From Vezdaea acicularis (Eukaryota), in the NCBI GenBank assembly GCA_026025075.1, contig JAPEUI010000016.1:124001-188000 (forward strand): 64,000 bases of DNA, written 5' to 3'. This document shows positions 1,824-19,227 of the stretch, in pieces; the first letter of the stretch is position 1, and the number at the start of each line of letters is the position of its first letter. The position numbers and the translations under genes were made by a program. The notes beneath the pieces were generated by a model. It did not search any database. It was not told the origin of the DNA and saw nothing but the letters and a program-made list of their open reading frames with translations.

Positions 1824-2435
1824 TCATACCCCTCCCCCACCAGACAGCCGTCCCAACCCCTTCCCAGGCGGCAATGGCTGCGGTTGGATCGGCTCTGGGA
1901 TAGGCTCCGGCGCTGCTTCTCTCCTCTCAACGTCTGAGACAGAAGGGGCGTGGCGCCCAGGCGGAAGTGGTTGTGGGTTCAATGGTTCCGCTTCTGCAGC
2001 ACGACCTGAAAGTCGATCCCCACCTCCTCTCCCGGGGGGCAACGGCTGTGGCTGAATCGGCGCTGCTGCCCTCCTCTCAACCCCCTCCGCTTCCCTTCTT
2101 TCAACGTCCGAGCCAGAGGGAGCATGGCGCCCGGGGGGGAGGGGTTGTGGGTTCAGTGGTTCCGCTTCTGCAGCACGGCCGGAGAGCCTGTCTCCTCCAC
2201 CGCGGCCGGGAGGGAGGGGTTGTGGTTGGATAGGCTCAGGAACAGGCAAGGGAAGAGCGGCACGACTGCCGATCACGATATCTTTTCCTTTTCCTTTTGG
2301 GAGAGCACTGTCCAGGAGGAACGGGGATTAGGATGATGTTGGGGATGGATATGGTGGGGAAAGGAAGGGGGAGGGGCCGGCTTACATGGTGAGACCCGTG
2401 AGGGCGAGGAGGAGGATGAGGGGGGAGGGACGCAT
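1824..2435 (-). CDS. Secreted Kex2/Ste13-processed repeat peptide precursor (KEP-like), five (IQ/LN)PQPLPPG cores; exons 2435-2386 and 2307-1824
   Basis: Exon 1 encodes a signal peptide, MRPSPLILLLALTGLTI. The intron GTAAGC...CCTAAT...CAG joins it in frame to the repeat ORF (ALPKGKGKDIVIGSRAALPLPVPEPIQPQPLPPGR...). Basic sites RR/LxxR are followed by X-A/X-P dipeptides. Confidence 0.85.
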
Positions 2436-3097
2436 GGTGGTGTTGGGTGGGCGTTTATTCAGTGGATGGGATGGGGATGGAGATATGCTTCAACGAGCAG
2501 AAGTCCTGGGCAAACGGGCGGGGACGGAGGGGGGAGAGAGGGGCTTATATGGTAGACGTTGACAGGGAAAAGCCAGGGGGTCAGCCTAACCACATGAGCA
2601 CTCAACTGAAGGGATCCCGGTCACAGGAGAACACCGCGCCTTGCACAAAGTTTGCATGAGAAGGAGAGCAAGTATCCCAATAAAGGTGCCAATAGCCTTT
2701 GATTCCTTCGAAGCTCTAAAGCTTAGTTCAGCCCTCTTCCTCGAGCTGAACGAATGAAAAGGGGGGGGGAGAGGCTTAGCTGCGCCCCGCGTTTTGGATC
2801 TCGCGGGCTGTCGCGGAATTTGCCGAAGGCGCTGGACCGCAGCAGATAGAGGAGAGTTACAGCGAGCGCGTAAGGGCTTGAGAGGCTGCGCATGGCATCT
2901 AGGATTCCGCCAAGCCCCAGATTCATACTCGGCATTTCGTGCGTTGCGTTGCGTTGCGTGCGTAGCGTTCAGAGAGAAACAACGACAAGGGCTCGCTGGG
3001 AAGCAAGACGACTCCTGGTGGCGGGCGCCGTTCTGGAACCGGAATATTCCCCCCCCTCCCATCCAACGATGGAAAGTTCCGATGAGGGACATGGAAG

Positions 3098-4016
3098 TCA
3101 TCCATCGCGTGGTTTTCGGGCTTCGTACAGTTTATTGATGTCGGCGATGAGATCCTTGGGTGCGCTGCCGCCGGGGCAGTCGTACCATTCGCCGTCGTCG
3201 CGGATGCAGCGGATCTTGTTGTCGAGACGGATCTATTGCGGACAATCGTGTGAGCAGGACTTTGACAATTCTACACGACGACTGAGGGACATACCGTGCA
3301 ACTCTTGGTGACGCCGGCTGCAGCGCTCCTCTTCACGCTGTCCCGGAGCATCCCTATCGCGCGGCCGTCGCTGTCGCTCATACAGCCGTTGAGCCGGTCG
3401 AAGCTCAGCGCGTGCTCGAGCGCGCAGTCCTCGATCAGATCTTTGTCGGGGATCTTCTTGTATTCATCTGTCAGGCACATCGTGAAGCCCAGGTAGATCT
3501 TGGGGTCGGGGTATTCGGCGGCCGCGCACAGCTCGATCATGTTGCCCAGGCACTCCGTCGGGCCGTGCTTGCAGCTGACGCCGTCGTCGTTGTCCGTAGG
3601 TCTAGATCAGAAGACATATCAGCACATGCGTACGGTATATAGACTACAAAAAGCGGAAGGTGGTTGTGAACGTACGTTCCAATGTATGAGAGCGTGAAAT
3701 CGACTTTGTCAGAGACCTGCTGCATCGCCGGCAACACCAGGTCACGCAGACAGTCTTTGGCATCGGGGCACTTGCTCATGATGTGTGCTTCCAGCGGGAT
3801 CTTGTCGCCCTTGCTAAGAACATCTTGAAGCTTGTCGGACCGCTCGAGGGGGACTGGCATCCCATTGACCTGTGTGACGGAGAACAGGTAGTAGATGACC
3901 GCGGCCAACGAGATCACCACCACGAGGAGAGACGTCAAAAGGGTCCGCTGGTAGCTTCGACTGCCTTCGTCGTAGGAAAAAGCCTTCTCAATCTCGTATC
4001 GCGTCTTTCTAGGCAT
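3098..4016 (-). CDS. Gamma-interferon-inducible lysosomal thiol reductase (GILT) family protein; exons 4016-3676, 3601-3295, 3232-3098
   Basis: N-terminal TM anchor; LEAHIMSKCPDA active-site motif; CKHGPTECLGN signature; KSCT|IRLDNKIRCIRD C-terminus. Confidence 0.9.
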
Positions 4017-4495: not shown

Positions 4496-6134
4496 ATGGA
4501 GAGCACCGACCCTCCCATCCCTCTTTCCGTCGGCGTCAAGAAAAGATTAAGCACCTTCAACATCACAGGCGATACCATGCACGATCTTGCAACCGAGTTC
4601 TCAAAGACATACAAACTTCTATCACGGACATCCGAGACACAATTCCTCCCGACCCCGATACCCTCGTCTGCTCCGTCTGGAAAGGAGCAGGGTTGGTACC
4701 TTGCCATAGACATTGGCGGTACGAATTTTCGAGTGGCCTTTGTGAAGCTCTCAGGCCATAGCAAATGCGACACCTGGGGAGAGAGGATATGGCCCATAAA
4801 GGAGGCTCTGAAGCTTGACAATGAGGAGTCACTGTTTGCCTGGATCGGCCAATGCATAGCAGGCGTGGTGGACTCATTCATCCTCCACCGGAAAGCTTCC
4901 TCCAAGGCCGTCCCTGACGAGATACCAATGGGAGTGACATTCAGTTTTCCAATGAAGTGAGTCCTCGCTCCAGCTATGATTCTGCAAGTTGCTGACGCAA
5001 ACGTGCATCAGTCAGAAATCCCTCTCTGAAGCTACGTTGATGCCCATGGGGAAGGGGTTTGCATTCTCCTCGAAAAGCGACCTCGGGACACTACTCCTCA
5101 GGGGTTACCAGTCCGCTAAGACGAGTTCCGACAAGGAATTGCCGAGCTTGAAAATAATGGCTATTGCAAATGATGCCGTTGCAACATTAGTGGCATTGAG
5201 CTACCGCGTCAGAGCCGAGCCATCAGGCCGGGTGGTCCTTGCAGTCATCTTAGCGACGGGGAGCAATGCCGCCATCTCGTCAAATAGGGTGAAATGGAAC
5301 AAGTCAGCTCCCATTCCGCCTAATGATCATGAAGACGCGCCCCTCGACGACTACAATCACATCATCAACACAGAGTGGGGCCTTTCTGGGGCCGCTGGTC
5401 CCCTCAAACAGCTGGGACTAGTCAACCCATACGATGAGATCCTCGACGGCATGAACGAGACTCCCGGCTTCCAGCCCTTCGAGTACATGACCTCTGGCCG
5501 GTACCTTGGAGAATTGACCCGCCTTGCGGCTTTGGACATCTTCTCAGAAGAGCTCGAGTTCGAGACATGGGAGCTCCCCATGATCATGACATGTAAAAAC
5601 GGCCTGACTTCAAAGTTTCTTGGTATGAAAGTTACGGAGGAGCAAGATGTCAGGAAGCTGTGCTCAGTTCTCACCGAGCATCTCCCGCCAAGGAGTCTTC
5701 CTGGGCTGCCTACGACGTTTTCTTGGACGCCCCCGATCGCACAGATATTTCAACTGATATCCCGTCGTGTGAAGCAGAGATCGGCTATTCTCATTGCTGC
5801 CGCCATCGTTGGTCTTCTCGACGCTTTCGGAGAAATCAATCTCAAACCACGCATCAATGATCTTGGGGAACCCAAGCTGGAGAATGGTGACTTGCATACT
5901 TGCTCCGATGCTCAAGCTGAAGATATCGTGGTGGCCTGTGCCGGAGGCGTCATCTCGAACTTCCCAGGCTACCGCGAGACATGCCAGACATACATTGATA
6001 AACTTATGCATCAACAGGATCCGGGTCAACCTTTCAGGCGTATAGTACTTCGGGACACGGTAGACGGTGGCATTATCGGTGCTGGCGTTCTTGCCGGCAC
6101 GGCATCTAATCTGGAGCAGGCAAGGCGAATTTAG
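4496..6134 (+). CDS. Atypical hexokinase-family protein (HxkC/XprF/Nag5-like); intron 4957-5011
   Basis: YLAIDIGGTNFRV, MGVTFSFPM|QKSLSEATLMPMGKGF, NDAVATL, ILATGSNAA, INTEWG, FEYMTSGRYLGE and DGGIIGAGVLA motifs. Confidence 0.9.
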
Positions 6135-6434
6135 GAAAGGTTATAAATTATGCATCGCAGCATTAGACGCTTTAGATTGGATGGTATGGCGCTAACGATT
6201 TCTCTCATACATTGCGATCTGTCTCACCGGCGTCTTACTTCATTTACTAGAAAGGGAAAGAAAACGTTTGTTAATGCATTTCATGGTTGATTCGTCTTGT
6301 GCAACCTGCTAGCCACAAGTCATTTCGTACCTCTCAGCCCCGCAGTCCCTCATCACCCCCGTCCTTGAAGACAATATCAGGGACGAGGCCACACTCTTAC
6401 CACTTCCAGCCCCGGGTGCTTGCTCTCGGTGTAA

Positions 6435-7116
6435 TTACCTCAGCTTCGGCGGAGCAACCGTCTGCACAGGAGTTCCGTAGACACTTGGACTCTTGCCGCT
6501 CACGCTCCGATTCGAACAAGGCCCCGAGGTCGTCATATAGAACGTAAGACAGGCAGTCCGACATCCACAAGCAGAGTAACTCGTGACCGTCCGCGTCGTC
6601 GAACAAGCGTCTTCCGCACATGGCGCCGTGATCGTAGAAAGGAGGGCGCATTCAGGCTCCTCACAGCCAGTGGAATTGGTCTTCAGTGGACACGGCGGCT
6701 GAACATGGACAGTCTCTGTATAGCAGGACTTGCAGGGAGTTGGAGAGACGGTTTGGGTGTTGATGCCACAGCCTCTGTCGCAGGTTGTGGGGCAGGGCAG
6801 GGTCTTCGTTTTTGTGCCTGTGGTGGGACAGGCGGAGTCGATGCAGGGCGGGGTGGTGAATGATTGGATGATGCATTCGGGATGAGGGCAGATTGGAGTT
6901 GGGTGGTGGCAGTGGCGGGGGGTCGTGTAGGTGGTATAGTGGTAGCAAGACCGGGGCTGGTGGGTGGTGATGGTATTGTTCTTCCCATTGTCTGCCTCGA
7001 CGAGCAAGGTTGTTCTGTTTATTAAGTCAGAAGTGAGGTGCGACAAGATTACATTTGGGGGTAGCGGACGTTAGGAGTACCGCCATGATGAGGCTGATTT
7101 GCAGAGTTGAATGCAT
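6435..7116 (-). CDS. Small secreted Cys/Thr-rich protein with two tandem 10-Cys repeats (exon 1 about 7116-7053, exon 2 about 6991-6435; acceptor uncertain)
   Basis: Signal-like MHSTLQISLIMAVLLTSATPK, GTAATC donor, and a downstream ORF with 20 Cys in two aligned units. Confidence 0.65.
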
Positions 7117-7917
7117 TTTGTTGTGGCAATGGATGTCTAGGATTTGTTACTTCTTTGGGACGTATCTATGTGTGCTTGGAAAATGTATACTGGATGGTGT
7201 TATTGTTAGTGTGGGTTGAGGAGCAAGTCGAGCGAATGAGTTTTCTAGGGTTCCTAGGGTTTCACAAGAGGAACAGTTGAGCCGTGGACTGTCCATGCAT
7301 ACGAAGCCGATCATAGCAATCCCACCGAAACACCATTGGCGTTCCTGATTAGCCTGCATACACATGTATGAAAATGCTAGGGCCAGTCTTCCTTCGGACA
7401 AACAAGCTTTCAGACCGCCTTTTTGTGCCCGCGTTACTTGCATGAAGGTACCCGGATGGATCGTGCATGGCGGCTTCCTGCATTAGGCCTTGGGCTACGA
7501 AGCTTGTTCTCCTACCGAACTAGGTACGGGAGAAATTCAACAAACCTACACTACCCTACCAATAAATTAAGCGTTGGAAGCAAAACCATGCAGCGATGTT
7601 TCTGTAACTTTCCCCCCGAACAGAGATGAGCTCTAGGGGCGTTTCGCTGCTATCAGGACACCCTGCATGGCATTCTGGGAAGGAGGTTGGGAGCTCTGGT
7701 CATTCCGCATTAGCTTATTGAGAAACACAATGACAGTTGAATCAGCAATGTGTTTGAAAGATTGGATTCGTATGTTCGCTCAAGGTCAATGAGCCTTGGT
7801 GAAAGGAGCTAGACGGTTGCAACCCCCTAAGGTTGCTTGGCAATCTACCTCCACATTACACATAGAGTACGAAATCGCTCCGCCAAAGCTCGGAAGGGTC
7901 AGATTGAAGCCAAGCCA

Positions 7918-8368
7918 TTAAAGAAAAGAGCACCAGCCTCTATCCACATCTCCCCCATCGCTTCCGTTGCTGGTGTGGCTGGTGTGGATGTCTAGGAAGC
8001 TGAGACGATTAGCGAGTCGTCAGCTCTCCTATGATGATGACGCTATGCATACTGTGGGAAGGAGCGCGAGAGAGCTCGATAGATTCGCCCTTTGATTCAT
8101 GAGGAAATAGCTTGGCAAGTTGCTTCTCGCGGATCAGGAGCTGCCTGGTAGGAATCTTTGTCAGAGTGAAGGCTTTTCGGAGCATCATGCACGGTACATA
8201 CTCTTCGGAGGTGAGACCGGGGATGTCGGGGATTTCGACTTTGTGATAGTTGGTCGGCCCAGACTGCCATTCGTTAGCATGTGAGATTCGGTTAAGCAAA
8301 CAGATACTTACAATCTCGATAACCCTTTCCTTGGACTCGGAGGAGGCTTTTGAGTGAATGCAGCCCAT
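7918..8368 (-). CDS. Small (~95 aa) N-myristoylated protein with a CRIB-like ISGPTNYHK motif; 3 predicted introns
   Basis: MGCIHSK N-terminus; introns GTAAGT..GCTAAC..CAG (48 nt), GTATGT..CTGAC..CAG (57 nt) and GTATGC..GCTAAT..AG. The last exon depends on acceptor choice. Confidence 0.6.
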
Positions 8369-9111: not shown

Positions 9112-10620
9112 TCACTTGGGGTAATTTTTGATGTGGAAGCTTTTCAACTTCACGAACTGCTCGAAGCCAAATTTACTCAGTGTGACCCCTCTGCCAGAGT
9201 TCTTCCAACCAGTCCAAGCTAGGTCCTACGATGATGTTAGCATATACCCAGGTCATATGCCACCCAACTGCGAGTACATACTGGGCTTGGGTAGTCACAG
9301 CGGTTCACGAAGACAGTGCCAGCCTCAACCCCTTCTGCTAACTCCTCGCCTTTAGCAGTGTCTTTCGTCCATATGCTCGCCGTGAGACCGAATTCGCTGT
9401 CGTTCATCAATGAGATTGCCTCCGCGTCATCCTTGACCTTCATTACTGGTATCACGGGTCCAAACGTTTCCTCGGTCATGACTATCATGTCGTGGGTGAC
9501 ATCCGTAAGTAGGGTAGGCGGAAGAAAGTTGCCATCTAGCTCAGGCAATTCAAAATGCGGTGTCTTGTCTTGAGCACCTTTGGCCAAAGCGTCTTGGATG
9601 TGGGACTTGATCGTAGTGAGAGAACGCTTCGAAATTACCGGGCCGAGGTTCGTGCCTTTGTCGAACGGATCTCCTATCTTGTAGCCTTTGAGTACTTCTT
9701 GCACCGCATGCACAAACTCATCGTGTACATTTGCATCTACGTAGATTCGTTCCAGACTGCAGCAGCTCTGCCCCGAATTGAAGACTGCACCATCCACGAT
9801 TTCCTCTGCGGCCCATTTCAAATCTACATCGGCTCTAATGTATGCTGGATCTTTGCCACCGAGCTCAAGGCCAACCGGGACAAATCTATCTGAAGCAGCC
9901 TTTTGAACGGAAAGTCCCACGGCCACGGACCCTGTCAAGCAGATCAACTTGATCTCAGGCGCTCGAACGACCGACTCCAAAATCGACTGGGATCCGCAAT
10001 GGAAGTATTGAATGACGTTCTTGGGAAGCCCGGCCTCGATGAAGATCCCCTGTACTTGTTCTGCTATGGTTGGAGTTTGTGGTGAGGGTTTGATGATGAC
10101 CGAATTTCCAGCAAGCAAGGCCGGGATGAGAGAATTCACAAGGATGAGGTACGGGTACTGTGGTATCAGAGTCAGAGAACGTGAAAGGTTGCTCCGCTGA
10201 TAGAAAGCTACTCACATTCCATGCGAAAATAATCAGCACTGGCCCTATAGGCTCCTTCCGGATGAATCGTCTAAACCCTTTCTCGGGTTCTCCTTCTGTA
10301 TCCTTCAAGGAATCTCCGCCAATCTTGAGCAGATACTCGCCTCTCGCAACTGCTGTAGTGATTTCCTTTGCAGTATATGCAATGGGTCGTCCCATCTGCT
10401 CGGTGAGCTCTTTTGCCAATTCATCCTGCTTGTCGGTGAGGAGCTTCAGCGCCTTCTTAACGATGGCTTGTCGTTCTGAAATGGTCGTCTTCTTAAACGA
10501 CAAGAAGGCTTCAGTCGCTACCTTCGGCAGAGCTTCAATCTCGGCATTTGAGAGACCATTGCGGACGACCACTGGCTTGTTGGTTGTCGGAGATATAGTG
10601 GTAATTTTTTCGACGGACAT
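9112..10620 (-). CDS. NAD(P)-dependent aldehyde dehydrogenase, 2 introns
   Basis: IFAWN|YP, IKPSPQTP, LTGSVAVG, LELGGKDP, NSGQSCC, EETFGPV and WTGWKNSGRG motifs. Confidence 0.95.
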
Positions 10621-14080: not shown

Positions 14081-17043
14081 CTTGGGTGGTTTGAGCTATG
14101 TCGGTGCAAAGAAGGGCAGGGTGTGCAGAAGTCTTGGATTTATAATATTTCGTGGGAGAGCTGGAGCTTTATGGTTTTTGTAGAGGCGGGTTGTATTGTG
14201 GGTGCTGCCTCGCGTGAGTTGAGGGGAGACGTGATTAGGCAAGCACCGTCCCTCGGCAAGTGACGCAACCTGTTTGCCTGGGCTTGACCATGTACTAAGG
14301 CGCGACATCTTCAAATTGAATTCTCAGAGCTTCATTTCGGCAAGCCAACGAACTTCATTGCTGAGAACTGTACGGAGAGAGCTCTCGGAAGGCTATTGAT
14401 ACATCTACCGATCTGTGCTCTTCCGCTTCGTCCTAGCTACATACACCGAGCCGTCTTAGTTGTTTCCCATAGTATGCTTAGTCAGGTTTAAAAAGAACAC
14501 TTCAAGGCATTTCGAGTAGTCAGATAGTTCTGCGAACCTTAAGCCTCCTCGAGCGCCCTCAACTCCAATTGCTGTACTTTTCCAAAGGTGGAGCTCCTGA
14601 TTGCCCCGGTGGGGGGGGGGGGTCCGAACACACGCGCATTAGATTGCTTTTCTCCAGCGCAACCCACTTTTCACTTCCCTTTCACCCGAGGAAACATGCC
14701 ATCCTCTCTATAGTTGCTGCTCCTATACCATCAGCAGACACCTGCCTCCCATCTACCATGCCCTCTTGTATGACTGCCACATTGCAGCCCCACGGAGACG
14801 GCGGCAACGGTAGAAAACGCTTGATCAAAGGGCGGATACGGGAGCGCGGTTGGCGCGCCATGCCACCCGGCTCTTTCCCTTCTTAGCACTCCGGAAAGGC
14901 GGGAACGCGGCGTCGGCAGCTTCGAGGCCGTTGGGCTTCCGGAGGAGCCTATTTTTATCGTGACGACAGCTCCAAGCTCCTCTCTCCCTCTCCTTCTGAC
15001 GCTTCCGACGGTGCCTTTTCCCCTTTGTTCCACTCCATCAGCTCTGATGCTCATCCCAACCCGCGTCCCACGGCATCCTCGCCGAGGCAGGACGTGCTGG
15101 CGGTACAGACCGAAAAGGGCGAACGTGGCGTCCATGGCGAGCTCAGTGGGCCGGCCGGGGGCGCGAGATTGGTGGACGCGGAGAACGAGCGTTCGAGCCG
15201 GCAAGCGGAACGTGACGGCGCGGCAGGGCATCTGCCATTTTGCAATTTTGCATTTTGCATTTTCCACTCTGGCCGGGGCCCATTGGCGCCCAGTCGGAGC
15301 CCTACCTCGAGCAGTCAATATTTGGCTGCGATGGGCCGCGACGCCGGGCTCGAGATTATTCGCGCTCTCCAGGAGGCCGGCCGCGCCTCCGATGGCATTT
15401 GCAGAATGGGAGAGGGGCTGTTGCGATGGCCGTTTCGGCGGGGCGACGGCCAGGGACCGGCGTTGAGAGCTTTTGTGCGGCGAAAATATCTCTCACGGCG
15501 TCGACAGGGAGGGCTGGGCGGCGATCATCGGGAATCCGTCCAGCGGGTGTGTCAGGCAGGGCCTTCCCCAACCGGCGCCCTGCCACTGCCTGCCTGTTCC
15601 ATCCGTCCACGCCCCCCAGTGGCCCCTTCCCTCACGCGGGCTCGCTTAGCCTAAGCGAATGCCGGGGGGCGATTAGGCGAGAGCGAGGGGGCCCCGGCGA
15701 GACCGCCCCCCGACCAGCATTTGCCCGGATTGCCCTGGAGCAGATCGGAGGGCGCGGAGGGGGCGGCCAGCTGGACACGAAGGGATGCTCTCCTTCAATT
15801 TGCCAATGAACAGTGCGAATGAGGCTTTGTCCGCCGTCTCCATCGAGCTTGTCACGACGCCGCCTTCTCGGTCGAGGCGCGCCGAGCGCTCGGCCTCTCT
15901 GTATGGTCCGCTTGTTGGCAGATGCAGCCGAAGCTTTTTCGACGTGTGGGGGGCACGGCGCCATGCTAACAAGTAACGAACTCATGGAGCGGCCGGAGTC
16001 GTCCGTGGCAGCTTATCCGTGCTCGTCGTGCTCGCCGTGCCCTTTGCATCTGGCGATGGAGAGCGCGGAGGGGCGTGCTTCACCGGTTTGTGGAAATGGG
16101 AAGATGGAAAGCCCTGTGGGATGATTGATCAGAAGGTGCGGAGGAGCCCAAAAAAGCATGGTGGTGAAAAAACGCGCGAGAAAAACGAAGGGGAGGGAAA
16201 CTGGGCGTGTCTGGGGCCCCCTCCCGAAGCTTGCGGGAGCCGCCAGAGACACCTCCGAGACGAGAAAGACGACGAATGGACGAATGGCCAGCGAGTCCGA
16301 CGGACAGACAACCGCACGATCGTCGTCATGCCACTCGATGACTACTGGCGCTGCGCTCACGGACAACCCCCTCCCAACGCTCACAGTCGCCCGTCCACCG
16401 CTTTTCGCTGTCGCGGTCGCTGTCGCTTTTTGTCTTTGCTGTCGCTCGCGCCCCTCGCCCTCGTTCTCGCCCTCCTGTTGCGGCGGTTCCCTAATCTTGC
16501 CCACTGCCTCTTCTCTTTTCCTCTCCTCCGTCACCATCCTCTCTCTCCTTCACTCTCCTCATTCTCCAACCTCTGACCAGCTCGGACCTGCTGGCGGCCG
16601 AAACCCAGCAGCAACGCCAGGCCTGGTTCATCTCTGAGCGTCTGTCGCAGACCCTGATATTCGCTCGGGCCAGTTCGCGGTCGGGTCCGTGGTAGCCGTA
16701 GTGGTCCCGCAATCACAACGGACTGCCGAGCTCGTCGATCGAGGTCGACGCCGAGAACCACAAAAGATCCGCATCAACCCTCACGCCCTTTTTTCCCTTC
16801 AACACGGCCCTCGTCCTGAACTCCGGTGAGCTTGAGCCAGCTCGACGAACTTAACATTCGAGGAGAGAACGCACGCTCGCTCGCACGAACGACCTTCGCC
16901 CGATATTTGCGTCGATGATTACGAAGAAACCGCAGACCGATTGCCCTTCCGATCCGACGAGTCAATGCGCTTCACCGATACAACACATATATCTTCAATC
17001 AGAAATATCAATTCACTAGCTTGATATCCGCTCAATTGGCGCA

Positions 17044-19227
17044 ATGCCGCCCGTCCTCCCCGATACGGGGTGGAATTCGGTGCTTCCGTTGGTCAAGCTT
17101 GTGCTGCCCCGCGGCCTCGATGCTTCTCAATCGATTGGTGTTCAGCCCATAGGGCACCAAGCATACATACTCAGTGTGCTGGCAGTGACATCGTCCGCCT
17201 TCAGTGTGGCATCAGCAATTGTTGCATTCTATTGGTTTGTCAAGATGCGGAGGAGCTTTCGACATCAGTACGTTCCTCGGGACTTGACCCCATCTGTCTC
17301 GGGCCCTTGCTTTGAATGCAGCTAACCGCTTGTACTGCACAGTCTGATCATGCTCTTGATTCAGAGCGACATGTTCAAAGCCCTGTGGTTTATGATACAT
17401 CCAGTCGTCGTCTTCACGCGAGGGCCTGTCCTCAGCAATTCCGCGTTCTGTCAAGCAAGCGGCTTTTTCATTTCTATCGGCATTGAGGCATCAGGTACGA
17501 GACCCTACGTGATGATTTGGCCCTCCTTCGGCGAAACGATGCTGACAGTCGTAGATTTTGCTATTCTCATGATTGCCGTTCATACCGCTTTATATATATT
17601 CAAGCCTTCGCAAGGTCTCGGCGAAGGCGGACTGTACCCTTATCGACACTTTGCCTACGTCTTATGGGTCATCTTTCCAGCCTTGATGTCCTCATTGGCA
17701 TTCCTCAATCCCGACAACGCCTACGTTACTCAGGAGACATATTGCTATCTCCCCATCCGCCCATTTTGGTACGGGCTAGCGCTAAGCTGGATCCCGCGTT
17801 ACATCATCTTCATCACCATCACAGTCGTTTACTTTTCCATCTACGGATATGTCAAATATAAATTCTCGGAGCTTGGATCTGATGTCGGCGACACATCACG
17901 GAAGAGGGCAAGTGCGATAGACGATCCGACCTTGCAGTCCGCGGACCTGACGGCTCCAAACCGGGTCCACCGCCCAGATCGACCAGAAGTCCCATCGATG
18001 CCGAAGCTGGCCCGGCACGGCTTGATCCCTCACTCCGATACTGCCTCAACGATAAGCCCGACAAGCCGCAAGCAATCCGTCATCTCGAACGGCAGTCCTC
18101 GCGCCCGTTCCAACAGCCACGGCTACAGCTGGGACACCTACACGCTCGCCAACTTAGACACCACGCTCTTCGACCCAGCGAAAGAGCCCCAGTCCCCTCT
18201 ACCCCCCGAGTTACACTACGATGCCTCACGCTCCAGCCCCTCCACGCTCGACACTGACCTTCTTCCCGACTCGACCACGAGCGTGACCAGTACCATGCAC
18301 ATCTTCCGGGGCTTCAAATTCCGGCGCCCCTCCTCAGCCGCTACCCCGCTCGAAGACCAGCCACACTTCGACCTTAGCCTCTCCCTGGTTGACTCCCGCG
18401 GGCGTAACATCGCCACCGAGGAGCTCCGCAAGACCCGCACCGCGATCCGGCGGCAGCTGCGTTTCCTCTTCATCTACCCGCTCGTGTACATGCTCATGTG
18501 GGTCATCCCCTTCATCAGCCATTGCATGCAGTACACGGACTACTACGTCTTGCACATGCCCTTTGTGCTCTCCTGCCTCGTCACCATCATCATCGCGCTG
18601 CAGTGCGCCGTCGACTGCTGGCTCTTCAGCACGCGCGAGAAGCCCTGGCGCTACATCCCCGGCAGCAAAGGCACCTTCGTCAACTCCTTCCTCTTCTGGC
18701 GCCACAACGCTCTCGACGAAGCTCGCGGCACCTCCAGCAGCGTCCCCGTCGCCCGCGCCGGCCCCGGCAAGAGCCGCGCCGAGATGGTCGCAGAGGCCCG
18801 CATCGCGTATAAGCGCCGCGCCGAGGAGCTCGCCCATAGCGCCACCCTCTTTGCCGAGCGCGAGGGCCGAGAACAGCTCGCTTTCGCGGCGGGCGCCGGC
18901 GGGAGGCGCGGCCGCGATAAGAGCTGGTGGGAAGAAGAAGGCCGGATGCGGCGTGATAGCGTCTTCTTGGAGCAACAGCAGCAGCAGCAGGGGGCGATCC
19001 CAACCCTCGGCGGCAGCGCTGGGGACGAGCAGGCCGGCATGAGCGTCGTGCATGAGGAAAAGCTGTCCGAAGCCGCGACGCAGCATGAACATGCACCTCC
19101 TCCTGCCACCGAGCGGGAAGAGGAAGAAGACGATGAGGTGTATGAGCCCGAAGTGTGGCGTCAGCCGGATATCACGAACGTCACCACCGAGCGGGAACGC
19201 GCGCGGAGGAAAGAGAGCGCCCCGTAG
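17044..19227 (+). CDS. GPR1: Git3/Gpr1-type carbon-sensing G-protein-coupled receptor; introns 17268-17342 and about 17495-17554
   Basis: MRRSFRH|LIMLLIQSDMFKALW, FCQASGF, GGLYPYR, CYLPIRPFWY.L.LSWIPRY, IRRQLRFLFIYPLVY and VDCWLFSTREKPWR motifs; 7 TM segments. Confidence 0.9.

Follow-up and report, generated by a model that had tools for sequence, protein, structure and literature searches.

The window analysed here, a 64,000-nucleotide stretch of Vezdaea acicularis contig JAPEUI010000016.1, carries close to its first base a small two-exon gene on the minus strand (2435-1824), whose spliced coding sequence of 534 nt encodes a protein of 177 residues. In order, the protein consists of MRPSPLILLLALTGLTIA, then LPKGKGKDIVIGSR, and then five units that each contain a nine-residue core (IQPQPLPPG three times and LNPQPLPPG twice). 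We propose that the locus is probably a fungal gene that stands alone and encodes an unstructured, secreted pre-pro-protein, one of the Kex2-processed repeat proteins (KEPs), and that soil fungi have a whole family of such precursors, of which it is a member. The features of the gene are as follows.

2544-2549, minus strand: TATAAG box, 114 nt 5' of the ATG; a putative promoter, from its sequence only.
2386-2435, minus strand: exon 1 (50 nt), with the CACCATG start and most of the signal peptide, MRPSPLILLLALTGLT(I).
2308-2385, minus strand: phase-2 intron (78 nt), with a GTAAGC donor, a CTAAT branch site at 2327-2331 and an ACAG acceptor.
1824-2307, minus strand: exon 2 including the stop codon, with the end of the signal peptide (..IA), the pro-piece LPKGKGKDIVIGSR and the five peptide units.
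2262-2273, minus strand: IGSR, a predicted monobasic Kex2 site with an aliphatic P4 residue, part of an IVIGSR motif.
2232-2261, minus strand: spacer AALPLPVPEP, five X-Ala/X-Pro dipeptides (Ste13 signature).
2205-2231, minus strand: core 1, IQPQPLPPG, followed by the tail RGGGDRLSG-R.
2175-2186, minus strand: LSGR, a predicted LxxR-type Kex2 site; spacer AAEAEP at 2157-2174.
2130-2156, minus strand: core 2, LNPQPLPPG, followed by the tail RHAPSGSDVE-RR.
2070-2105, minus strand: two VERR dibasic sites (2094-2105 and 2070-2081) around the small piece EAEGVE; spacer AAAP at 2058-2069.
2031-2057, minus strand: core 3, IQPQPLPPG, with the tail RGGGDRLSG-R; LSGR at 2001-2012 and spacer AAEAEP at 1983-2000.
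1956-1982, minus strand: core 4, LNPQPLPPG, with the tail RHAPSVSDVE-RR; VERR at 1920-1931 and spacer EAAPEPIPEP at 1890-1919.
1863-1889, minus strand: core 5, IQPQPLPPG, followed by the C-terminal tail KGLGRLSGGGGV and the stop codon.

The two-exon model with an intron at 2385-2308 had been put forward in a preliminary description of this DNA, and it was reproduced exactly; a splicing script returns the same protein letter for letter. The ATG at 2435 lies in a CACCATG context, the stop codon occupies 1824-1826, and the branch site is 19 nt 5' of the 3' splice site of the intron. Without splicing, the reading frame meets a stop after 17 codons. The predicted signal peptide has one Arg (MR..), a 13-residue hydrophobic run and T-I-A at its end, as judged by a heuristic hydrophobicity score, and the composition past residue 18 shows no hydrophobic stretch and hence no membrane anchor. 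A low-complexity tract at 1620-1800 directly follows the stop codon; it is purine-rich on the gene strand (GGGGA/GGGAA-type), is reported in several rows by Tandem Repeats Finder, and is presumably the 3' untranslated region.

The coding capacity of the gene is revealed by comparison of its own repeats. Two 48-codon units (P-IQPQPLPPG-RGGGDRLSGR-AAEAEP-LNPQPLPPG-RHAPSxSDVERR-E) are 77% identical at the DNA level and differ by just one residue; 33 of 144 nucleotides differ, 28 of them in third codon positions. In the proposed frame the 30 codons that differ comprise 29 silent changes and one replacement, whereas the other five frames give silent to replacement ratios of 1/29, 2/28, 4/26, 23/7 and 0/30. 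This indicates that the proposed frame is under strong purifying selection and that the duplication is old. The tails are constrained along with the cores, since nine of the ten codons of RGGGDRLSGR differ silently between the units. The coding repeat is missed by Tandem Repeats Finder, its DNA copies having drifted apart. The precursor locus is thus confirmed as a real small fungal gene.

The five cores start at residues 43, 68, 101, 126 and 157, and a six-frame search of the whole window with the core sub-patterns PQP[LIVE]PP, NPQP and QPQPL found no sixth, the one further match being an unrelated QPQPL at 9320-9334. The precursor has Arg sites of three types (VERR three times, LSGR twice and IGSR once), and all five spacers (AALPLPVPEP, AAEAEP twice, AAAP and EAAPEPIPEP) have an even number of residues, every second one being Ala or Pro, in agreement with the earlier claim of a basic site and an exact X-Ala/X-Pro run before every core. 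The mature region is devoid of Trp, Tyr, Phe, Cys, Met and Thr, and an AlphaFold2 prediction from the single sequence (pLDDT, predicted local distance difference test, 63; pTM, predicted template-modelling score, 0.14) has no secondary structure except one three-residue helical turn. No Pfam or NCBIfam model covers either the LNPQPLPP motif or the protein. A weak NCBIfam match to PtrA (E 0.038) falls on residues 36-48, GGGDRLSGRAAEA, and not on the motif, and a genome search with the PtrA family gave nothing above the cut-off.

A plausible course of processing can be read from these elements. Signal peptidase would cut after ..TIA, and Kex2 in the Golgi would then cut after the Arg of IGSR, of the two LSGR sites and of the three VERR sites. 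A Kex1-type carboxypeptidase would trim the C-terminal Arg residues, and a Ste13-type dipeptidyl aminopeptidase would strip X-Ala and X-Pro pairs up to Ile-Gln or Leu-Asn. The peptides expected from this route are linear and unmodified, and each would begin at its free N-terminus with the invariant nonapeptide: IQPQPLPPGRGGGDRLSG in two copies (monoisotopic mass 1800.96 Da), LNPQPLPPGRHAPSGSDVE (1966.99 Da), LNPQPLPPGRHAPSVSDVE (2009.03 Da) and IQPQPLPPGKGLGRLSGGGGV (1984.12 Da). Kex2 is described as requiring Arg at P1, with a variable P2 and with Leu or another aliphatic residue at P4 ('LxxR'), while tolerating Pro at P4 (PMC8528282), and the Ste13 signature is, in the paper that also defines KEPs, a run of X-Ala/X-Pro (PMC6339444). 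The sites and spacers of the window gene fit both pictures. We infer secretion, cleavage, the peptide ends and any signalling role from the sequence.

The preliminary description had left it open whether the products are nonapeptides or longer peptides that keep their tails. The relatives favour the second: the nonapeptide is constant among them while the residue after PPG and the tail vary, so that products of 18-21 residues, core and tail together, seem likelier to us than 9-mers without a tail. Position 10 in the fungal-type proteins described below (I 9, R 5, H 3, V 3, L 2 and K 1, of 26) is only sometimes basic, next to a nearly invariant nonapeptide, so that a cut directly after PPG-R is no feature of the family, and the silent-site constraint on the tails agrees with products that retain them. 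What the family is predicted to conserve is a free N-terminal L/I-N/Q-P-Q-P-L-P-P-G, attached to a variable tail reaching to the next Kex2 site.

Relatives of the window gene were recovered by several routes. Protein searches gave eight relatives among proteins of 88-280 aa (E up to 0.01) and 24 among 1.84 billion representatives (E up to 0.001), none of them identical to the window protein; three (P0003, P0006 and P0019) have the layout of the window gene. A metagenome scan for P[ILMF][NKQH]PQPLPPG found 102 loci with 137 matching sites. At the two free positions 98 of the 137 sites (in 62 loci) read Leu-Asn, where 12.5% would be expected from the codon share, which argues that LNPQPLPPG is a selected word and not an effect of composition. 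A genome scan with the spacer patterns yielded a single Terriglobia locus, L001, inside the span of a 797-aa open frame (5748-8141, plus strand). A language-model atlas gave no usable match for the window protein, and for the metagenomic locus L047 it gave Ascomycota hypothetical proteins at 0.90, a lead only.

By reading, 25 of the 102 metagenomic loci, representing about 17 distinct genes with G+C contents of 0.45-0.52, are of the fungal type. In these genes a signal peptide precedes between one and nine LNPQPLPPG units, each with a variable tail of 5-16 residues ending in KR, RR or [LIV]xxR, except that the last unit extends to the C-terminus. Later cores are preceded by pairs such as EP, AP, DP, EAEP, NAEP, DASP and NPLP, and single-unit relatives such as L011 consist only of a signal peptide, Ala-Pro and one 17-residue peptide. 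Heuristic models of eight loci predict that exon 1 measures 41, 44, 47 or 50 nt and is in every case of phase 2, with a short intron directly ahead of A[LI]P-LNPQ; the intron has 50-58 nt at seven of these loci and 40 or 49 nt at L025. L024, the closest metagenomic relative, shares with the window gene a 50-nt first exon and a phase-2 intron (GTAAGT...CAG); its second exon starts ALPLAAKHDTGIVIGSR-SAEP-LNPQ, compared with ALPKGKGKDIVIGSR-AALPLPVPEP-IQPQ in the window, and the ALP...IVIGSR start is common to both. Neighbouring genes match CAP-Gly at L034 and G-patch plus MMtag at L019 (Pfam), all of which we take to be eukaryotic families. Among 17 open frames in flanks of up to 2 kb at eight loci, no neighbour is common to the loci and none is a tailoring enzyme. 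The five distinct monobasic sites in the family (IGSR, LSGR, VNER, IVNR and VAER) all have an aliphatic P4 residue, which matches the Kex2 preference of PMC8528282. These observations support the view that the Kex2/Ste13 layout is a property of the whole eukaryote-type family rather than of the window gene alone.

The preliminary description mentioned LNPQPLPP in bacterial proteins, which understated its extent, in that more than 130 bacterial secreted proteins carry it; in describing a fungal peptide system it was right that a fungal family exists but too narrow, as the nonapeptide is far commoner in bacteria. A search with the protein of L031 gave 128 proteins of 51-163 aa (E up to 0.01), mostly bacterial, with source names that include Candidatus Angelobacter sp. 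and Devosia geojensis, and a core of the looser pattern [ILMFV][NQD]PQP[LIVEDM]PP is found at least once in every one of the 146 proteins collected by the protein searches and look-ups. The small bacterial signal-peptide proteins have three to five copies in Lys/Ser/Thr-rich linkers, with the flank consensus [SD]-K-V-A-LNPQPLPP-G. For one bacterial protein (P0022) a structure prediction places the repeats below a pLDDT of 50 (disordered), with only a C-terminal helix (209-252) confident.

The word also occurs in larger proteins. RDD-family membrane proteins end in ..VPLNPQPLPPGP at 11 loci (Pfam RDD for L014), a glucose/sorbosone dehydrogenase has the word just past its signal peptide, and RTX and Peptidase_S74 proteins bear motifs of the same type. 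The RDD loci (L008, L014, L018, L032, L038, L042, L044, L051, L066, L072 and L094) are of high G+C, with a Pro/Gly-rich N-terminus and the tail ..TTVC[VL]PLNPQPLPPGP. P0013 (516 aa) has six FDPQPVPPG repeats about 34 residues apart, followed by a Peptidase_S74 (endosialidase chaperone) domain. At four loci (L002, L004, L039 and L101) a leader ending in ..(E)ALxxVTGG is followed by RLGPGPMPLNPQPLPPG or a close variant and then a stop codon, and L039 has a cyclic-nucleotide-binding domain before the leader, with a match to TIGR03896, 'bacteriocin-type transport-associated protein' (cyc_nuc_ocin; E 7e-31), at 107.7 bits, below the 161-bit cut-off. We take the leader to resemble the double-glycine leader consensus, and the product looks like an exported 17-residue peptide with the LNPQPLPPG word at its C-terminus.

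Occurrence in Terriglobia is sporadic, the LNPQPLPP DNA pattern being present in four of 201 sampled genomes and a reversed control in none; one of the five sites (L110) reads LNPQPFPP. Two loci of one Terriglobia genome (L109 and L111, G182) encode paralogues of about 205 aa with a single LNPQPLPPG between hydrophobic, strand-like segments and with two PPDPC motifs. Neither has a Pfam match, and the word appears to sit inside a larger, possibly folded protein.

Among the various other short motifs found with LNPQPLPP in bacteria (among P0004-P0134), we note [RK]KAGG[DET][PQ] in 20 of the 146 proteins, G.G.GK[IV] in six and [EQ]PPDPC in four, and the bacterial proteins seem to be made of short conserved words strung along low-complexity linkers. 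One companion motif, [IV]3-4[GS]2[KR], is shared between kingdoms. It reads IVIGSR in the window protein, P0003 and P0029, and IIVVGGK, IIIVSGK, IIVIGGK or IIIVGGK in P0022, P0027, P0099, P0103, P0120 and P0145, and it is present in nine of the 146 motif proteins compared with a mean of 0.036 (maximum 1) in 500 shuffles. Its position is 4-10 residues upstream of a core in four of six bacterial and three of three fungal proteins. That two short, independent motifs keep one order in fungi and in bacteria favours common descent through a putative gene transfer over convergence, the units being too short to establish the fact or the direction of such a transfer by phylogeny. A tentative scenario, which we think doubtful but worth stating, is that LNPQPLPPG is an extracellular peptide word used across kingdoms: bacteria of several phyla would display or export it, whether in repeat proteins, in end-tags of membrane and periplasmic proteins or within a double-glycine-leader peptide as its core, and soil fungi would have taken the unit together with its IVIGSR-like companion by horizontal transfer and rewired it for Kex2/Ste13 release, acting on the same target as in bacteria. 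If true, this would amount to inter-kingdom signalling or mimicry.

A strict context, ([KR]R or [LIV]xxR)(X[AP])n-core, occurs at 19 of 25 distinct contexts in nine fungal-type proteins and at none of 443 in the 137 others, a test set of proteins found by homology alone, although 'fungal-type' was sorted by eye with the cleavage layout itself in use, so that this comparison is partly circular. What is solid is that the large bacterial set has no instance of the strict context, which is confined to the group with introns, eukaryotic neighbours or low G+C.

The circularity just mentioned is one of several points that weigh against the interpretation. The independent eukaryotic signs (introns and neighbour genes) are available only for P0003/P0029, P0019 and P0042 among the proteins found by homology, and a bias affects the further count of 28 of 34 distinct internal cores (window and fungal-type loci) that follow [KR](X[AP])n, as the scan pattern demanded a Pro before at least one core per locus. 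In the window gene itself the reading of five peptides hinges on cleavage at monobasic [LI]xxR sites. Each of its cores directly precedes Arg or Lys (PPGR four times and PPGK once), so that, given the tolerance of Kex2 for Pro at P4 (PMC8528282), 9-mers of 945.53 and 931.51 Da are a less likely but conceivable product of this gene. Finally, in bacteria, which are without Kex2, the nonapeptide lies inside larger proteins, so that its function need not depend on release.

A first rival to the processed precursor is an intact, secreted, disordered proline-rich repeat protein of about 16 kDa, in which LNPQPLPPG would be a short motif for binding or structure, as presumably in bacteria, with the basic sites and X-Ala/X-Pro runs left uncleaved. 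The bacterial proteins with the word that are not Kex2 substrates (repeat proteins, RDD C-termini, dehydrogenase N-termini, RTX and Peptidase_S74 proteins) are consistent with it, as are the conservation of tails and spacers in the window gene, which equals that of the cores, and the sharing of the IVIGSR-like motif with bacteria well beyond the shuffled expectation. We nevertheless think it unlikely, since it does not account for the strict Kex2-type context that sets the fungal-type proteins apart, for spacers that are always even with Ala or Pro at every second place, for monobasic sites that always have an aliphatic P4 residue, or for single-unit relatives in which little is left besides a signal peptide, Ala-Pro and one peptide. 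At the other extreme, the suspicion that there is no gene at all, just an open frame that arose by chance in proline- and glycine-rich repetitive DNA, draws on the repetitive nature of the region, the long open frames on both of its strands and the lack of an identical database protein. The excess of silent changes in the proposed frame alone, a canonical intron that restores this frame and relatives with the same exon-intron structure make it barely credible, and as far as sequence evidence reaches it is already refuted.

Two further alternatives accept a processed precursor and assign it to a different class. The gene could encode the precursor of a modified or cyclised RiPP (a peptide made on the ribosome and then altered after translation) of the dikaritin or prolyl-oligopeptidase type, with tailoring genes unlinked or beyond the window, which ends at base 1, about 1.8 kb downstream of the precursor stop codon. 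Ustiloxin-type RiPPs do use KEP-shaped precursors (PMC7329392, PMC6339444), and the cores here are bounded by Pro. Against this, and in line with the earlier claim that no DUF3328 or other tailoring gene lies nearby, Pfam searches of 142 open frames of at least 75 aa in the first 24 kb of the window found no DUF3328, tyrosinase, methyltransferase, P450 or S9 peptidase match, and the 17 open frames in flanks of up to 2 kb at the eight related loci are likewise free of tailoring matches. To our knowledge the fungal cross-links described so far need aromatic residues, and the mature region has none, nor any Cys, Met or Thr, which makes a modified product improbable.

An alpha-type mating pheromone of the host fungus shares the architecture of signal peptide, Kex2 sites and Ste13 spacers, and the predicted products of 18-21 residues fall within the 9-24-residue range of alpha-pheromones (PMC6339444); L047 also lies at 0.81 to an MF_alpha cluster in the language-model search, again as a lead only. 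The protein has no MF_alpha or MF_alpha_N match, however, and Pfam at E up to 10 returned only a chance match to Enterochelin_N. It has neither Trp nor Cys, as already noted when the cores were first described as unlike alpha-pheromones, whereas those of Sordariomycetes, Leotiomycetes and many Dothideomycetes keep two Cys and a PCW end (PMC6339444). Two peptide types alternate, and the nonapeptide is constant across divergent loci and bacteria, unlike species-specific pheromones. We thus regard a pheromone as very improbable. Further ideas considered were an SH3 or GYF ligand, tannin binding, prolyl hydroxylation and amidation. The processed, linear peptide precursor remains the reading that we favour, and the analysis supports the preliminary interpretation of the gene from its sequence.

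The window in which the gene resides is fungal, with Pfam matches to Git3, GPR_Gpa2_C, adaptin, Nuf2, hexokinase, aldehyde dehydrogenase, UCH peptidase and a GILT-like protein; Git3 and GPR_Gpa2_C (named for the glucose receptor regulating Gpa2) are presumably fungal families. A GILT-like thiol reductase gene (about 3098-4016, minus strand) adjoins the precursor gene upstream on the same strand; it has two short introns by reading, and Pfam GILT matches on two open frames. A gene for a Git3-type glucose-sensing G-protein-coupled receptor (Pfam Git3 and GPR_Gpa2_C) lies at 17020-19224 on the plus strand, about 15 kb from the precursor gene, with no link between them.

The functions of the thousands of predicted fungal KEPs are largely unknown (PMC9769878), and the family described here has properties that make it easily tested. 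That divergent loci keep the N-terminal nonapeptide invariant suggests a specific receptor or target, and the products, predicted to be linear and unmodified, have known masses and are easily made by synthesis. Since many soil bacteria use the same word, one may ask whether the target is shared or genes have passed between kingdoms. Peptides that prove to be released and active would offer a handle on non-mating peptide signalling in soil fungi, and perhaps on interactions between fungi and bacteria.

Yeast prepro-alpha-factor (MFalpha1/2) and the alpha-pheromone precursors of Pezizomycotina have the same order of signal peptide, Kex2 site, (X-Ala/Pro)n and peptide, with Kex1 trimming of basic ends implied. 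The window protein differs in lacking an MF_alpha_N pro-region and an MF_alpha match, in having no Trp or Cys and in a pro-piece of only 14 residues, and assignment as an alpha-pheromone precursor was rejected on the absence of the MF_alpha match and of Trp and Cys. Ustiloxin-type (dikaritin) precursors such as UstA are likewise KEP-shaped repeat precursors cut by Kex2. No DUF3328/UstYa gene is present in the first 24 kb of the window and the core has no aromatic residue, and on these grounds a dikaritin precursor was also rejected. The Kex2-processed pro-domain (K2PP) effectors are similarly cut at Kex2 sites whose P2 is non-basic and whose P4 is aliphatic (PMC8528282). They lose one N-terminal pro-domain and leave a folded effector, whereas the window protein has no predicted fold and its sites recur between repeats; with no folded domain predicted, this class was rejected too.

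The bacterial LNPQPLPP proteins (P0002-P0146 and the bacterial-type loci of L002-L103) have the identical nonapeptide, often in three to nine copies behind a signal peptide and often followed by Arg or Lys. In some of them the companion [IV]3-4[GS]2[KR] is also present, 5-9 residues upstream of a core. They differ in their flanks ([SD]-K-V-A compared with R-x-A-E-P in the fungal type), in having no strict context among the 443 examined and no introns, and in that the motif also occurs inside or at the ends of larger proteins. The double-glycine-leader/TIGR03896 loci share an exported short peptide with LNPQPLPPG, and differ in the route of export and cleavage and in the place of the motif, which is C-terminal in the core and not N-terminal.

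The closest likeness is to the KEPs (Le Marquer et al. 2019, PMC6339444; Umemura 2020, PMC7329392), which share with the window gene a signal peptide, clustered repeats, KR/RR sites, the X-Ala/X-Pro signature, predicted peptides in the class of 9-24 residues and a stand-alone gene. Set beside the KEP pipeline, the window gene appears to have the signal peptide (heuristically), the minimum of four fragments on cutting at KR/RR (delimited by three RR sites at residues 87-88, 95-96 and 145-146), the Ste13 signature and the repeat coverage, the cores alone making up 45 of 177 residues (25%, where at least 15% is required). The pipeline also asks for at least three similar motifs with Kex2 sites between them; dibasic sites alone give two full 58-residue repeats and a partial third, and five units are obtained if [LI]xxR sites are counted, so that three repeats are reached only if the monobasic sites are included.

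The preliminary description called the system undescribed, and the core motif strings were indeed not found in the literature searched, although the main published KEP peptide table (PMC6339444 Table S2) lay outside the text search. The sole literature match to PQPLPPG is a paper on a designed WW/PPxY polymer. Core sub-strings were also absent from the supplements of PMC6339444, PMC7329392 and PMC7099791 in their searchable parts, which is weak evidence as the KEP peptide table is not text-searchable and the Table S2 part of PMC7329392 lists accessions only. The KEP motifs named in the available text of PMC6339444 (DADAATXYV[A/V]D, YVW[G/A][G/S], SPPHKT, QKLKVD and XSDW) do not include the window core. 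A KEP family defined by LNPQPLPPG is thus new to the literature searched, and may be listed in an earlier catalogue. Unlike the KEPs, half of the sites in the window gene are of the monobasic [LI]xxR type, two peptide types alternate, and the core is common to bacteria. The unexpected feature of the LNPQPLPPG KEP family is this last one, a peptide word that is identical across kingdoms.

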